Source: Phycisphaerae bacterium (GTDB lineage Bacteria > Planctomycetota > Phycisphaerae > SM23-33). Taken from it: a stretch of 64,000 nt of DNA. The first letter of the stretch is position 1; the number at the start of each line of letters is the position of its first letter. The DNA lies in assembly GCA_009783465.1 (NCBI GenBank), contig WRDM01000011.1:2911-66910 (forward strand). The letters are read 5' to 3'. The notes beneath the pieces were generated by a model. It had not been told where the DNA came from, did not search any database, and worked only from the letters and a program-made list of their open reading frames with translations. This document shows positions 3,061 to 55,393 of the stretch, piece by piece. The position numbers and the translations under genes were made by a program.

Positions 3061-3238
3061 AAATCCGAAATCCGAAATGCGAAATCCGAAACAGATTCCA
3101 AAGAATTCAAAGAAGAAAATTCCAAACGGCAAAGCCTATGTCGCATCAAAACGTATGGCGTCACCGTCTGGGTTTGGAGTTTTCTCCTTTGGGGTTTTGT
3201 GATTTGTTTCGGATTTCGAAATTCGGATTTCGGATTTC
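3061..3238. repeat. Long hairpin repeat with 7-nt periodic arms (gaaatcc family), copy 1 of 3
   Basis: Left arm aaatccgaaatccgaaatgcgaaatccgaaacagattccaaag pairs with right arm ctttggggttttgtgatttgtttcggatttcgaaattcggatttcggatttc. It starts 28 nt after the stop of the preceding gene. It is homologous to 10617-10781 and 49927-50079. Confidence 0.85.
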
Positions 3239-10616: not shown

Positions 10617-10781
10617 ATCGAAATCCGAAATTCGAAGCCCGAAATCCGAAACAAACTCCAAAGCCCCAAACGACAAAACCCAAACGCTCCGCTATCCAAA
10701 ACATTTGGACCGCGGAGCGTTTGAAATTTTCTGCTTTGGGGCTTTGGAATTTGTTTCGAATGTCGAATTTAGGATTTCGTA
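10617..10781. repeat. Long hairpin repeat with 7-nt periodic arms (gaaatcc family), copy 2 of 3
   Basis: Left arm gaaatccgaaattcgaagcccgaaatccgaaacaaactccaaagccccaaacgacaaaacccaaacgctc pairs with right arm gagcgtttg...ctttggggctttggaatttgtttcgaatgtcgaatttaggatttcg. It sits between convergent genes, and the right arm overlaps the last codons of mnmG. Confidence 0.85.
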
Positions 10782-12742
10782 TTTTTCGCCAGGTGAATCG
10801 CCAGCACGGTGATGTCCGCCGGGGTGATGCCGCTGACGCGTAAGGCTTGGGCGAGGGTGCGCGGGGCGATGGCGGCCAGGCGTTCTCTTGCTTCGTGACG
10901 CAGCGATTTGACGGCGCGATAGTCCAGGTCTCGCGGGATCAATTTGTGTTCGAGGTCTGCGAGCATGGCCAATGATTGGCGCTCGCGAACCATGTAGCCG
11001 TCGTAGCGGGCATCGACGAGGAGCGACTCGATCGCGCGCGGGTGGGCGGCGGTCAGTTGGGATAAACGGGATCCGGGATCCGGGATTCGGGATCCGGGCG
11101 CGGAGGTCGAATCGCCGTTCGTGGTGGCTTCGCCTGTTTGCGTTGTGGGATGTTCCTGTGGTATGGAACGTTCCGTGTCACACGAACGTTCTACAACGCA
11201 AACAGGCGGAGCCACATCCACATTTTTTCCGTCTTCGGGTGTCGGTTGCGTTCGTTGTGCCAATTCCCACAACGTTTTCCCATGTTTTCGCGTGGAATGG
11301 AGAATCGTTCGCGCTTCGGTGACGGCGGATTGGTTGGCGGAGAAGATTTCCCAGCGGTGGTCGTCGACGAGGCCCGCCGCGCGGCCGAGGGGGGTCAGGC
11401 GGCGGTCGGCGTTGTCGGCGCGGAGGCTGAGGCGGTGTTCGCTGCGGCTGGTGAACATGCGGTAGGGTTCGGTGATGCCGCGTGTCACGAGGTCGTCGAT
11501 CATCACGCCGATGTAGGCCTGGTCGCGGCGGAGGACGAATTCGTTTCGGCCCAGGGCGCTGGCGGCGGCGTTGGCGCCGGCGACGAGGCCTTGGGCGGCG
11601 GCTTCTTCATAGCCGGTGGTGCCGTTGACCTGTCCGGCGAGGAACAGGCCGGCGAGGGCTTTGGTTTCGAGCGTCGCGCGGAGTTGGGTTGGCGGGGCGT
11701 AGTCGTACTCGATCGCGTAGCCGAACCGCAGGATCGTCGCGTTTTCCAGGCCCTTGATGCGGCCGATGACGGTGGCCTGCACGTCTTCGGGGAGCGAGGT
11801 GGTCAGGCCGTTGACGTAGACCCAGTGGGTCGCGATGCCTTCGGGTTCGAGGAAAATCGGGTGGGCGTTTTTATCGGCGAATCGTTCGATTTTGGTTTCG
11901 ATGTTGGGGCAGTATCGAGGTCCGGCGGATTGGAGCAGGCCTGAACGCGTCGGGGCGCGGTGGACGTTTTCGCGGATGGCGCGGTGGACGTCGTCGTTGG
12001 TGGCGGTGAGGTGGCAGGGGATTTGGTGGACGTCGAGGTGGTCGGTGAGGAAGGAGAAGGGCGTGGGCGTCGCGTCGCCGTGCTGGGGCGTGCAGCGGGC
12101 GTAGTCGATGGTGTCGGCGGCCAATCGCGGGCAGGTGTCGGTCCGCAGTCGGCCCAGTGTCAGGCCCAGTGCTTGCAGCGAGCGTGACAGGCCGGTGACG
12201 GCGGGTTCGTCGATGCGGCCTCCGTCCCACGATCGGTCGCCCAGGAACATCTGGCCGTTCATAAACGTGCCCGTCGTCACGACGATGGATTTGGCGTGAA
12301 AACGTTCGCCGTCCGCGTGTGTCGATTGGACCGTCGCGCCCGTCACTCGACCGCCTTCGACGAGGATGTCGACGACTTCGCCTTCGATGACGGTGAGGTG
12401 GGTTCGTTGCGAGAGTGTGTGTTGGATCCACGCGGCGTAGGCATGGCGGTCGGACTGGCATCGCGGGCCCCAGACGGCGGGGCCTTTGGAGCGGTTGAGC
12501 ATGCGGAACTGGATGCCGGTGGCGTCGGCGGCCTGGCCCATCAGGCCGCCGAGCGCGTCGATTTCGCGGACGATAGGCCCCTTGCCCACGCCGCCGACGG
12601 CGGGGTTGCACGCCATCTGCGCCACCGTGGCCATCGAGAGCGTTACCAACGCCGTCCGCGCACCCATCGCGCTGGCAGCCCAGGCGGCCTCCACACCCGC
12701 ATGCCCGCCGCCGATCACCAGGACGTCATAGTCTGTATGCAT
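10769..12742 (-). CDS. mnmG: tRNA uridine 5-carboxymethylaminomethyl modification enzyme MnmG (GidA)
   Basis: The N-terminus [20 protein letters not shown] is an FAD-binding motif, followed by [13 protein letters not shown]. MnmG similarity runs through to [18 protein letters not shown] roughly 60-aa extra segment near the C-terminus is encoded by a repeat element. Confidence 0.95.
11068..11213. repeat. Repeat element inside the mnmG coding sequence: (gggatcc)n tandem array plus 21-bp-arm inverted repeat
   Basis: 11068-11098 is gggatccgggatccgggattcgggatccggg. The IR arm ggcttcgcctgtttgcgttgt (11127-11147) pairs with acaacgcaaacaggcggagcc (11193-11213) with 1 mismatch. The motif tttgcgttgt...acaacgcaaa is shared with 53542-53695. 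Confidence 0.8.
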
Positions 12743-44280: not shown

Positions 44281-44537
44281 TTTTTACCACAGAGGCACAG
44301 AGGAGAAGAGCCACAAGCCACAAGCCACAAGCCACAAGGTATGGCTCGTCTGATGTAAACAAGACCATACTGATGAAGTGACAAAATGTCTTTGGCGTTT
44401 TCGTTATTCATGCCGTAACCATCAAAATTGCATTCATTCCTCTGCTTTCGCCGTCGTCGTCCCTTACCTCGTGGCTCGTGGCTAGGCTCTGTCTCAAAAC
44501 TAGTGGCTTTTTTCTTTCTGTGCCTCTGTGGTAAAAA
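44281..44537. repeat. Nested hairpin repeat (outer arms ttaccacagaggcacagag; inner 7-nt gccacaa arms; conserved core), copy 1
   Basis: Outer arms 44281-44302 and 44518-44537 pair. The inner arm gccacaagccacaagccacaagccacaagg (44310-44339) pairs with ccttacctcgtggctcgtggctagg. The core ggtatggc...gttttcgtt.ttca.gc...cgtcgtcg.cccttacct is shared with 47158-47337. Confidence 0.85.
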
Positions 44538-44547
44538 GAATCTCGCC

Positions 44548-47148
44548 TCACGGCAGTTTCCACACCTGGACCCGATCGTTTCCGCCGTCCACCACGTAGG
44601 CCATGTTGTCGTCGTCGATCGCGACGGCCCAGGGGTAACTGAGTTGTCCCAGTTCGCGTCCGGCTGAACCCAGTGAAGCGATTGCCTGGCCGTCGGGCGT
44701 GAAAATCTGTACGCGGTTGTTGCCCTGTTCGACGACGACCAGCCGGCCGTCGCGCGTCAACGCCAGGCCGTACGGATATCGCAACTGCCCAGGCCCGCTG
44801 CCCGGCGAGCCGATGTAGCCCTGCAATTCACAACGGAGATTGTACACCGCGACGCGGTGATTGCACGCGTCCGTCACGTACAATCGGTCGCGGGCGGCGT
44901 CGACGGCCATCGACTGCGGCCTCGAGAACTGCCCCGCCTCCGGGCCGAACGATCCGAACGCGCCGAGGAATTTTCCTTCCGGCGTGAAGAGGTTGATGCG
45001 GTCGTTGGCGCCGTACTCGCTGACGAGCACGCGGCCGTCGGGGAGGAACGCGATGTCGGTGGGGAAGATGAATTGGCCGTCGCCCTCGCCGAAACTGCCC
45101 CACTGGCGGACGAGTTCGCCGTCACGGGAGAAGACCATGACACGGTGGCAGTGCGTGTCGGCCACGTAGATGTTTCCGTCGGGTCCGACGCTGACGCCGC
45201 AGGGTTTGCCGGCGACGATGTCGGGCATGGCGATGTCGCGCACGAAACCGCCGTCGGGGCTGAGCAGTTGGACGCGTCCGGTTTTGTCGACGACGACGAG
45301 CGTGCCGTCGGCGAAGCGGTCGATCGCGCGCGGGTAGAGGAGCTCGCCGTTGCCCGAGCCGCGTCGGCCGATCTTGCCGCGCACGTCGGGCGGGCTGTCG
45401 TGCGGACGCGAGCAGGCCGGCAGCGACACGCCCGACAGAGCGACGATCAGCAGCAGCGTCATCAGCGAGCGGCGGCGGCGAGCCAGCCGCAGCAGCAGCC
45501 ACAGGCCGATCGCGGCGGCGAGGTAGAAGCCGAATAATAGCAGGCATGCGGCGACGACTTCCTGGTCCCGCAAGGCGTGCATCTGGTTGAGGAGGTAGAG
45601 GCTGAGGCTGAAGGCGCCCGGCGGCGAGACGATCTGGCTGCCGGTGATTTCGGTCAGGCCGAGCATGAGGACGACGACGGCGGCCCCCGCGAGCGTCGGC
45701 CAGGTCGCGGGGAGATGGACGTGCCGCCAGGCCTGCCAGGGCGACGCGCCGTCGACGGCGGCGGCTTCGGCGAGCGAGCGGCTTCGCGCGTCGCGGACGG
45801 CCCAGAAGACGATCAGCGCCAGGCCGGCGAATCGCACGCCCTGGAAGAGGCTCACCAGCAGCACGCTGTCGCGCAGCGGCAACAGCCACTCGTACCGCGC
45901 GATCCACTGCGACATCGCCACCGCGACCAACCCGCCGGGAATGATGGCCACGACCAGCAGGGAGACGGCGATGAGGGCGGTGATAATGCGGCGCGGGCGG
46001 CTGCAACGTGACGCGGGCGTCTCGCCCGCGTTGTGCGTTCCATTGATTTGGTTGTTGGAATACGTCGAACCGCCTTTGCCGCTCCGCGTGGGCAAGATGC
46101 CCGCGAGACGCATGGGCGAGACGCCCTCGCCACGTGAAACGCCCGTGTCCCAAGCGATCCTTGCCAGCAGCAGCGCCACGCCGGCGCCGAGGGCGGAGAC
46201 GGCCAGCGATTGGACGTATTTATCCGCCTGGAGCGTGACGAACTGCGCGAGATAATGCGGCGACATCGTGCCGGCCAGCAACGCCAGAGGCCCCGCCAGC
46301 GTGAACAGTAGCAGGGCGGTCACGAACGTCCAGGCCCATCGTCTCGGCCGGCCTGTAAATGATTTGGCACCGCCGCCGGTGTGATCGGCCCAGCCCTTCG
46401 CCGATCGCGCCAGCGCGACGGCCAACAGCAGCGACATCGCCGCCAGCGGCACGCAGCCGGCCACCGCCGGACCGACGCGAAGCGACTGCTGCATCGCCAA
46501 CGCCAACTCCGTGCCGATCGTCGCCTGACCGGCCAAATGCAGCGACGCGAAATCGGCTAAACACAGCGCAAAACACAGCCCCGCCGCCAGCGCGGCCGGG
46601 CGGGTCATCAGCGGAGCGGCCACGTATCGCAATCGGGCGAGCGGGCGGGCATCCAGGGCGGCGGCGTCGTGCACCTCGGCGGGAATGTTTCGCCACCCCT
46701 GCGCCAACAGCAGCGCCGCCAACGGCCAATACCACAGCACCAGTGTGAACGAGGAGGAGATCCAGGCCGCCCACTCCGCCAGCGTGCGGTCGGCGGCGAC
46801 GTACTGCCCCAGCGCCGCCGTCGGCGACAGGCAGATCGCCCACGAATAATACAACACGTACTGCGGCAGCAGCACGCTCGCCAATGCCAGCACGGTCAGC
46901 CCGCCCGCCCACCGACGCGATGCCGTCGCCATCAGCCATGCCGGCACGAGCCCCAACGCCACCGCCATCGCCGCCACCATCGCCGCCAACCCCACCGACC
47001 GCGCCGCCACCGGTGACCACCAGAGCGCCAACCCCTCCGCCAGATCCGCCAGCGAAACCTGCGACACCAGCCCCGCCAACGGGACAACGACGAGGCAAGC
47101 CCAGATCGCGACGCCGAGCAGGAGCAGGATGGGTCGTAGAATGGTCAT
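44548..47148 (-). CDS. ABC transporter permease (two-domain FbpB-type) fused in frame to an NHL-repeat beta-propeller protein
   Basis: ATG at 47148 gives MTILRPILLLLGVAIWACLVV. Multiple TM segments occur in two permease halves. After LLRLARRRRSL comes an internal Met with a lipoprotein-like signal MTLLLIVALSGVSLPAC, then six NHL-type blades (YPRAI, PCGVSV, FPTDIAF, RPQSMAV, YPYGLAL, YPWAVAI). Confidence 0.8.
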   Translation of the reverse strand: MTILRPILLLLGVAIWACLVVVPLAGLVSQVSLADLAEGLALWWSPVAARSVGLAAMVAAMAVALGLVPAWLMATASRRWAGGLTVLALASVLLPQYVLYYSWAICLSPTAALGQYVAADRTLAEWAAWISSSFTLVLWYWPLAALLLAQGWRNIPAEVHDAAALDARPLARLRYVAAPLMTRPAALAAGLCFALCLADFASLHLAGQATIGTELALAMQQSLRVGPAVAGCVPLAAMSLLLAVALARSAKGWADHTGGGAKSFTGRPRRWAWTFVTALLLFTLAGPLALLAGTMSPHYLAQFVTLQADKYVQSLAVSALGAGVALLLARIAWDTGVSRGEGVSPMRLAGILPTRSGKGGSTYSNNQINGTHNAGETPASRCSRPRRIITALIAVSLLVVAIIPGGLVAVAMSQWIARYEWLLPLRDSVLLVSLFQGVRFAGLALIVFWAVRDARSRSLAEAAAVDGASPWQAWRHVHLPATWPTLAGAAVVVLMLGLTEITGSQIVSPPGAFSLSLYLLNQMHALRDQEVVAACLLLFGFYLAAAIGLWLLLRLARRRRSLMTLLLIVALSGVSLPACSRPHDSPPDVRGKIGRRGSGNGELLYPRAIDRFADGTLVVVDKTGRVQLLSPDGGFVRDIAMPDIVAGKPCGVSVGPDGNIYVADTHCHRVMVFSRDGELVRQWGSFGEGDGQFIFPTDIAFLPDGRVLVSEYGANDRINLFTPEGKFLGAFGSFGPEAGQFSRPQSMAVDAARDRLYVTDACNHRVAVYNLRCELQGYIGSPGSGPGQLRYPYGLALTRDGRLVVVEQGNNRVQIFTPDGQAIASLGSAGRELGQLSYPWAVAIDDDNMAYVVDGGNDRVQVWKLP
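46003..46136. repeat. Palindromic element inserted in frame inside the ABC permease gene
   Basis: The sequence runs gcaacgtgacgcgggcgtctcgcccgcgttgtg ... gggcaagatgcccgcgagacgcatgggcgagacgccctcgccacgtg. It is translated as RGEGVSPMRLAGILPTRSGKGGSTYSNNQINGTHNAGETPASRC, in the same frame as the mutS2 copy. Confidence 0.85.
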
Positions 47149-47157
47149 ACGTGAAAA

Positions 47158-47337
47158 GCCACTAGCCACTAGCCACCAGGTATGGCCGAACCTGTTGTGA
47201 ATAAGAACACACTGGCGGTGCGGCAACGTATCGTCAGTGTTTTCGTTGTTCACGCATACTCGTCAGACTCGCATCAACTCTTTTGCCTTCACCATCGTCG
47301 CCCCTTACCTTGTGGCTAGTGGCTTGTGGCTAGTGGC
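47158..47337. repeat. Hairpin repeat with 7-nt gccacta arms and conserved core, copy 2
   Basis: gccactagccactagccaccagg pairs with ccttaccttgtggctagtggcttgtggctagtggc. The core is collinear with 44310-44490. It lies between the permease start and the binding-protein stop. Confidence 0.85.
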
Positions 47338-47345
47338 TCGCATTC

Positions 47346-53432: not shown

Positions 53433-53695
53433 GAAGACCGAGCAGGATTACGCGGATGGAAGGATTGTATGGAGAATTGTTCGTTCCAGTACGGCCATTC
53501 GGTAATTCAGGGATAACGTATCGAAATTTCCCCGGTTTTCCGCATGCCCTCTGGAATCGGCGCGCCTGGCCACAGGCCCTGCCAGTTTGCGTTGTAAGAC
53601 GTTGTGCGTGATACAGCGCTTCATTTGTCACAACGACCTACAACGCAAACTGGCAGGGCTGCTGTGGCCAGGCGCGCCGATTCCAGAGGGCATGC
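53433..53695. repeat. Mosaic repeat region: truncated relative of the 12781 element plus a 54-56-bp-arm inverted repeat
   Basis: gaagaccgagcaggattacgcggat (from 53433) matches the 12781 terminus. The IR arm 53542-53595 (gcatgccctctggaatcggcgcgcctggccacaggccctgccagtttgcgttgt) pairs with 53640-53695. The loop motif is related to the element inside mnmG. Confidence 0.8.
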
Positions 53696-55282: not shown

Positions 55283-55393
55283 GCTGTTAGACTGTTAGGC
55301 TGTTAGACTGTTCGGGAGAGGCTTATGAAGGATTTGGCCTGATTTTTCATGAGCCTGCGCCTAACAGCCTAACAGCCTAATAGTCTAACAGTC
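55283..55393. repeat. Hairpin repeat with 8-nt periodic arms (cctaacag family), copy 2 of 2
   Basis: gctgttagactgttaggctgttagactgtt pairs with cctaacagcctaacagcctaatagtctaacagtc. The core ggcttatg...tcatgagcctgcgcc matches 7284-7392. It lies between convergent genes. Confidence 0.85.

Follow-up and report, generated by a model that had tools for sequence, protein, structure and literature searches.

In-frame hairpin repeat and heptanucleotide array within the mnmG gene of a Phycisphaerae bacterium

Introduction

A 64,000-nucleotide stretch of DNA from a Phycisphaerae bacterium (positions 2,911 to 66,910 of contig WRDM01000011.1, GenBank assembly GCA_009783465.1; this whole stretch is called the window below) carries a gene for MnmG, a tRNA modification enzyme, whose reading frame runs through a palindrome and a tandem array of heptanucleotides. 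How did such repeat DNA come to lie inside this gene, and does it do anything there for the protein or its message? We argue that, very probably, a copy of a dispersed repeat landed in the DNA of the MnmG linker, was tolerated there, and is passively translated as selfish or structural DNA that has no protein function of its own. The assembly that contains the window is a repeat-rich metagenome-assembled genome (MAG) of 70 contigs and 2.48 Mb that is 70% complete. The features at the locus are as follows (window positions; nt, nucleotides; aa, amino acids):

10769-12742, minus strand: mnmG, tRNA uridine 5-carboxymethylaminomethyl modification enzyme; intact open reading frame (ORF) of 657 aa, host of the insert
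11124-11215, no strand assigned: 92-nt palindromic element, subfamily B of the TTTGCGTTGT family; arms 11124-11169 and 11170-11215; aa 510-540
11130-11146, minus strand: left conserved 17-nt family arm, ACAACGCAAACAGGCGA on the minus strand; arm search, 1 mismatch
11193-11209, plus strand: right conserved 17-nt family arm, ACAACGCAAACAGGCGG; arm search, 0 mismatches
11099-11123, minus strand: 25-nt spacer from array to palindrome; aa 540-548, TTNGDSTSA; DNA alignment with the sister species
11067-11098, no strand assigned: (CGGGATC)4.6 heptanucleotide array; Tandem Repeats Finder, period 7, 92% matches; aa 549-559

Results

The mnmG gene and its repeat module

The ORF was identified as MnmG from the ORF list and its Pfam and PDB matches. 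Pfam GIDA (PF01134) covers residues 6-399 (499 bits, E = 1.1e-149) and SAM_GIDA_C (PF13932) covers residues 594-647 (74 bits); the N-terminal flavin adenine dinucleotide (FAD)-binding GIDA domain and the C-terminal helical bundle by which the family is recognized are thus both present. The MnmG chains of E. coli, Aquifex and Chlorobium in the PDB match at E values of 1e-160 to 1e-171, and these solved structures align as two pieces, query residues 4-484 and 568-653, with both repeat features lying between them. Of the 96 positions of the GIDA_C_1st profile, which describes the intermediate helical domain, only the first 35 match (residues 461-495), and this match stays under the profile's cut-off. 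All 657 codons are open and every conserved MnmG motif is kept; by tblastn the gene has a single match in this 70%-complete assembly.

The palindrome has 46-nt arms that are complementary at 38 of 46 positions (83%) with zero spacer, and together with the array it accounts for 124 nt (92 + 32) that are read through in frame as residues 510-559. The original prediction had placed an in-frame repeat module in the variable linker before the C-terminal helical bundle, and this is where the module lies. The predicted heptamer array was recovered by Tandem Repeats Finder with 4.6 copies. The predicted palindrome is also real, but the 21-nt arms given for it are only the best-conserved core of the 46-nt arms; likewise there is an extra segment, but it measures about 43-50 aa rather than about 60, as the 57-aa stretch that had been quoted includes native linker. 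The 11-aa peptide encoded by the array is periodic at 7 aa because three 7-nt units make 21 nt. The 25-nt spacer is probably original linker, since the sister species described below has it too. The mRNA from 11060 to 11222 folds to a predicted -77.7 kcal/mol, compared with -47.5 ± 4.0 for shuffled sequences (z = -7.5; none of 200 shuffles was as low). An intrinsic terminator at the palindrome was considered and rejected, as a scan for such terminators calls no terminator-like site there.

The segment is an insert peculiar to this lineage

A search of 40 relatives, which represent 39 genera of the class, found MnmG in every one of them as two segments, about 1-500 and 555-655 of the query, that are separated by 9-23 codons in the relative, and the insert faces gaps in all 16 aligned family-level orthologues. 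Among the best 120 homologues the linker stretch aligned to query residues 490-565 is 29-39 aa long in 108, with a mode of 33, while in the query it is 76 aa. The net excess over the mode is 43 aa (129 nt), which comes very close to the sum of palindrome (92 nt) and array (32 nt). An equivalent linker in orthologues from genomes free of these repeats would have refuted the original prediction; such orthologues instead have a linker with a modal length of 33 aa and no equivalent sequence. By these comparisons the insert is absent from other orthologues and present in this lineage only.

Does the inserted DNA look like coding sequence? Its G+C content at third codon positions (GC3) is 0.52, compared with 0.81 for the rest of mnmG; the insert lacks the codon-position bias of coding DNA and its composition is non-coding-like. 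No Pfam domain covers it. In an AlphaFold2 model (built from a 17-sequence alignment; mean predicted local distance difference test score, pLDDT, of 75) residues 499-551 have pLDDT values of 30-39 and hardly any regular secondary structure (one 4-residue helix, 502-505), the helices that flank the insert have values of about 70-89, and the fold is predicted to be intact. The encoded peptide is thus probably disordered.

The same insertion in a sister species

The closest MnmG protein in public data (P0002; identity 79% by BLASTP, 83% when aligned) is found in two assemblies, independent of each other (JGI and ENA), of a sister species from sample Ga0123353, and it has a shorter insert at the same site as the query. 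Its DNA shows 24-nt arms that are 88% complementary around a 4-nt loop; the central 36 nt of the hairpin are missing, 11 nt stand opposite the 38-nt array region of the query, and the heptamer array is absent. The amounts by which query and sister differ in length (15, 36 and 27 nt) are without exception multiples of three. Because the same insertion occupies the same site in both, the palindrome predates their split.

The age of the insertion can be gauged as follows: a manual count on the DNA alignment finds 26 of 31 and 19 of 23 positions identical between the orthologous arms of query and sister, a divergence of 16-17%, and the two arms of the query differ from one another at 8 of 46 positions (17%). 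These nearly equal divergences are what neutral decay would give if the palindrome had been inserted near the time of the species split. The heptamer array either grew later in the query lineage or was lost in the sister lineage. A metagenome scan with two unique array flanks and a gap of 12-42 nt, aimed at a second strain, gave 0 matches.

Could the insert instead be an assembly chimera made by repeats, or mnmG a pseudogene in the making? The source is a repeat-rich, 70-contig, 70%-complete MAG, which speaks for such an error, but the 657-codon frame is open with all conserved MnmG motifs in place, the fold is predicted to be intact, and a homologous insertion is found at the identical site in the two independent sister-species assemblies. 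We consider artefact or decay extremely unlikely.

A dispersed family of hairpins

The original prediction held that the palindrome belongs to a dispersed family and recurs at about 53.6 kb of the window, and both statements held up. The genome contains at least 86 hairpin elements, whose conserved arms are CYGCCWGTTTGCGTTGT / ACAACGCAAACWGGCRG. The 17-nt arm ACAACGCAAACAGGCGG has 303 matches at no more than 3 mismatches in the 2.48-Mb assembly, compared with 29 in a reversed-genome control, and these include 86 inward-facing inverted pairs with a modal interior of 44 nt (46 in the mnmG copy). The palindromes span 67-158 nt and fall mainly into subfamily A (48 copies, ...GGCCACAGGCC CTGCCAGTTTGCGTTGT..., with long outer stems) and subfamily B (35 copies, ...ATGGCT CYGCCTGTTTGCGTTGT...AGCCAT), to which the mnmG copy belongs. 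Within the window there are 4 arm matches where 0.22 are expected; the second copy is:

53576-53659, no strand assigned: intergenic family copy, subfamily A, arms CTGCCAGTTTGCGTTGT / ACAACGCAAACTGGCAG (C11:56486-56569), with the conserved arms at 53579-53595 and 53640-53656

The prediction had also kept this family apart from the GACGCGGGCGTCTCGCCCGC-type hairpin repeat in an ABC permease gene of the same genome (window 46003-46136). That repeat too lies in frame within a conserved gene, but the two families are unrelated: they have no sequence in common, and BLAST with the mnmG module misses the permease site.

What is conserved among the copies? When 21 equal-length subfamily-B copies are compared, 91.8% of cells pair and 29 of 43 pairs have changed on both sides; none of 500 shuffles equals the observed values, and in slid controls 36-43% pair. 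Such pairing together with two-sided changes indicates that the hairpin, and not the interior sequence, is the kept and conserved feature of the family. G-U pairs in subfamily A show no strand bias (88 versus 97), and hence no sign of selection on one transcript strand. Nothing anywhere in the window reaches an Rfam gathering score.

Given that the hairpin is conserved in the family, has the copy in mnmG been co-opted? Its mRNA hairpin (about -72 kcal/mol) might modulate mnmG translation or stability, or the added loop might alter the interaction of MnmG with MnmE or tRNA. The mnmG hairpin is stronger than most intergenic copies, the insertion has been kept in two species, and the same linker holds other hairpin inserts in other lineages (below), all of which would fit such a role. 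On the other hand, the sister copy is without the whole hairpin centre and 3 of its 24 arm pairs, the arm substitutions between the species are not compensatory, GC3 of the insert is like that of non-coding DNA, its peptide is predicted to be disordered, and the inserts of the other lineages are of unrelated sequence. Co-option is in our estimation quite unlikely.

The exact pattern TTTGCGTTGN{38,50}CAACGCAAA finds 75 elements in this genome and 0 in the 40 relatives. Matching stretches in JGI metagenomes number 58, and 52 of them are from sample Ga0123353, which also holds the sister species. A search of 185,579 GTDB species genomes with the pattern gave 25 matches, all in other phyla; we rejected these as members of the family, as they are REPs (repetitive extragenic palindromes) with a GTAG tag or chance palindromes that have nothing in common with it but the 10-nt core which the search pattern demanded. 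By these searches the family is lineage-restricted.

Among those matches is a REP family with the GTAG tag, GTAGGGGTTTGCGTTGGGGCGG ... CCGCCCCAACGCAAACCCCTAC, that was met repeatedly in MAGs unrelated to one another: RI_153 (loci L037, L041, L043, L047 and L053), MFD01721.bin.2.215 (L033, L036, L046 and L052) and Caldilineaceae (L029, L045 and L050). These REPs have the GTTTGCGTTG core in common with the mnmG family, probably only because it was demanded by the pattern.

Traces of mobilization

No target-site duplication was found: 0 of the 86 copies have a direct repeat of at least 4 nt at the palindrome ends, and matches of 2-3 nt occur there at the level of chance. Nor does the assembly, which is 70% complete, contain a RAYT (REP-associated tyrosine transposase) gene flanked by this family. 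It has one clear Y1 transposase gene (PF01797, C23:13560-13904, 88 bits), which we rejected as a linked transposase; it is flanked by a different nested palindrome, GCCCCGAAGGGGC... / ACCCAGGGTGAGC.... This IS200/RAYT-like Y1 gene and its surroundings (C23:13300-14110, outside the window) are a candidate mobilizer of another repeat family of the genome.

Copies within genes are rare

How often do family copies lie in genes? Copies were called intragenic or intergenic from open frames, GC3, Pfam and inspection, with no gene caller. Twenty frames cross a copy without a stop and extend for 60 codons or more to either side of it. Two of them belong to credible proteins, MnmG and a double-FtsX permease, so that credible genes hold 2 of the 86 copies. 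Ten of the 18 further frames were translated and rejected by eye as Arg-rich or antisense-like, and the others were discarded because of the GC3 of their flanks and the shortness of these; a C55 frame found by tblastn is spurious. The second intragenic copy (C19:23359-23436) lies in a permease of about 1150 aa (C19:21219-24782, outside the window; Pfam FtsX), directly after the first and thus between the two FtsX domains. The mnmG and permease copies are read in different frames (PVCVV... versus ACLRCK...).

Heptamer arrays and permissive loops of MnmG

The genome is rich in short tandem arrays: it has 362 of period 7 and 204 of period 8 (at least 3 copies, overlaps collapsed), compared with 28 and 66 for periods 3 and 6; when duplicates are removed less strictly the period-7 arrays number 526, or about 212 per Mb. 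The dominant heptamer units contain AGCC (AGGCTGT, AGCCAGT, GGCTATT and GTGGCTT) and usually occur as inverted pairs that form hairpin arms. The GGGATCC unit of mnmG is rare, with 2 of the 526 arrays. An apparently intergenic array at C21:9700-9735 is a twin of the one in mnmG (94% over 36 nt): the AAAC at its flank is shared, and so are the variant unit and the place of that unit in the array. Because the variant unit is in the same place in both, the mnmG array may have been copied as a unit rather than grown in place. Examples of period-7/8 arrays in the window are:

748-844
3061-3238
44309-44483
47157-47338
55284-55391

A further heptamer-armed hairpin, (CGAAATC)n ... (GATTTCG)n at 10619-10790, begins within the last mnmG codons; its right arm encodes the tail ...KNTKS* and the stop codon. 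The MnmG of the sister species ends in ...KNSKS, which indicates that this arrangement is common to both. A terminator-like stem with a T-run lies on the minus strand at 10711-10677.

Might the array in mnmG itself be regulatory? Since 7 is not a multiple of 3, slippage by one unit would frameshift mnmG and remove its C-terminal domain, making the array a phase-variation element; alternatively a G-quadruplex (G4) might form on the template strand and modulate transcription. The plus strand at the array, which is the mnmG template strand, has five GGG tracts with 4-nt loops, the unit resembles GGGNATC repeats that form G4 in vitro with a preference for 4 units (PMC4692102), and the array differs in length between the two species. 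Set against this, there are only 4.6 imperfect units, which make a poor slippage substrate, the unit is rare in the genome, and mnmG is apparently single-copy in the assembly, so that an off-switch would remove its function. Phase variation or G4 control by this array seems to us very unlikely.

Other Phycisphaerae carry repeats in mnmG as well. In one (P0003), complete hairpins of the form (AATGCGG)n...(ATTCCGC)n occupy a FAD-domain loop as well as the C-terminal linker that holds the insert in the query, and two others have arrays in the FAD-domain loop:

L028:1928-2065 and L028:3154-3364: hairpins in P0003 mnmG
L005:1932-1976: (CGACCTT)6.4 array, FAD-domain loop of MnmG
L008:1921-1952: (AAATCCG)4.6 array, FAD-domain loop of MnmG

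Like the query array, these repeats give 7-aa periodic peptides (for example ECGMRNA/IPHSAFR and SEIRNPK/FRISDFG); in sequence they are unrelated to the query module. Of the 120 homologues, 29 have an expanded FAD-domain loop (an aligned stretch of 45 residues or more, where about 25-27 are usual) and 8 an expanded C-terminal linker. That unrelated repeats occur in the same two loops argues that the loops are permissive; judged from these sequences, MnmG has two permissive loops that have been colonized repeatedly by Phycisphaerae repeats.

Comparison with known repeat systems

Rickettsia palindromic elements (RPE-1 to RPE-10; Ogata et al. 2000/2002, summarized in PMC10969869) are in-frame repeats in housekeeping genes, and the mnmG palindrome is like them in several ways: it is a dispersed, many-copy palindrome of roughly 100-150 bp, it lies in frame in an unrelated housekeeping gene, where it would add a surface peptide and leave the fold intact, and orthologous copies are kept in related species. 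Judged from their sequences, both the mnmG and the C19 FtsX permease copies are free of stops and have intact host domains on both sides. The host is a member of the Phycisphaerae and not Rickettsia, and the likeness is one of behavior. The two differ further in that only about 2% (2/86) of the mnmG family is intragenic, compared with nearly half for some RPE families, that the two translated copies are in different frames and there is no conserved family peptide, and that a heptamer microsatellite adjoins the mnmG palindrome.

REPs and REPINs (REP doublets forming hairpins) are likewise high-copy, mostly extragenic, lineage-specific palindromes with co-varying arms and with occasional copies wholly in ORFs; intragenic REPs have been described in ORFs of RNA- or DNA-handling enzymes (Di Nocera et al. 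2013, PMC3733652). The mnmG family consists of a single long hairpin of 78-158 nt, however, rather than of 20-40-nt units, and a constant tag at the terminus, whether GTAG or CGTC, is lacking (GTAG is confined to the interior of some copies). Its conserved ends are CYGCC... and ...GGCRG, with outer stems ATGGCT/AGCCAT or GGCC. Neither the terminal tag nor the cognate RAYT flanked by the same repeats that mark REPs was found in this 70%-complete genome. Bacterial MITEs (miniature transposable elements with inverted repeats; reviewed in PMC10969869) are small and non-autonomous, have inverted ends and can form in-frame fusions. The mnmG family resembles them in its small size, lack of autonomy and inverted ends, but the target-site duplications expected of a MITE are absent from its 86 copies, and no parent insertion sequence came to light, though no search aimed at one was made. 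The family thus fits RPEs in behavior but not in intragenic frequency, and does not fit REPs or MITEs.

The array can be compared with the GGGNATC heptamer simple sequence repeats of Xanthomonas and Nostoc, for which under-representation on the coding strand has been described where they lie within ORFs (Rehm et al. 2015, PMC4692102). Like these it has about 4 heptanucleotide units with one G3 tract each, and its G-rich strand is the non-coding (template) strand of mnmG; GGGATCCGGGATCCGGGATTCGGGATCCGGG on the plus strand has, by sequence, the at least four G3 tracts with short loops that a G4 would need. It differs from them in that its unit, GGGATCC, is rare rather than enriched genome-wide (2 of 526 period-7 arrays), the abundant heptamers being the AGCC-containing ones, and in that the array is translated.

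Discussion

The palindrome in mnmG is best assigned to a new family of fold-back repeats, specific to this lineage, of whose members few are translated; a microsatellite lies next to it. The course of events was very probably as follows: a non-coding, hairpin-forming, lineage-specific repeat of REP- or RPE-like kind landed in DNA for a surface linker in the first C-terminal helical subdomain of MnmG. The copy survived because it has no stop codon in the mnmG frame and because the loop tolerates added residues, and the palindrome has been retained since then, giving some 31 residues of disordered peptide on translation. The nearby heptanucleotide microsatellite would add 11 aa, with its length constrained only by frame. 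Frame would thus be the sole filter on a module that would have no protein function and be selfish or structural DNA. In view of the co-varying arms and the lack of target-site duplications, we consider spread of the family through a fold-back or hairpin intermediate with a trans-acting enzyme the likeliest course.

We infer that the insert is translated and that it is selectively neutral. Several points weigh against passive carriage of a tolerated repeat. Translation is deduced solely from the unbroken reading frame; the mnmG hairpin ranks 70th of 86 when copies are ordered from the weakest up, and its place in the more stable part of the family fits some selection on structure; the near-identical twin at C21:9700-9735 means that the array may have been copied in; and the mobilizing enzyme was not found in the 70%-complete genome, where it may have been missed.

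A broader conjecture, which we think unlikely, is that Phycisphaerae hairpin and heptad repeats repeatedly target, or are kept at, the same two MnmG loops, generating disordered loops throughout the lineage, and that 7-nt arrays act as slippage-adjustable "frame adapters". If it were true, 7-nt arrays (7 = 1 mod 3) would rescue insertions that break the frame, such as the 92-nt palindrome (92 = 2 mod 3).

The repeat family is new; the phenomenon is already known from the Rickettsia palindromic elements, and no new mechanism is involved. What the locus adds is a second, independent repeat family, and a microsatellite, among the hairpin DNA that appears to be read through in conserved Phycisphaerae enzymes, with one such read-through event dated to about the split of two species. 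It also shows which sites in MnmG tolerate large insertions, which is useful for loop engineering. For annotation, MnmG proteins of outlying length and broken Pfam GIDA_C_1st matches in this clade are signs of repeats rather than of errors or new domains.

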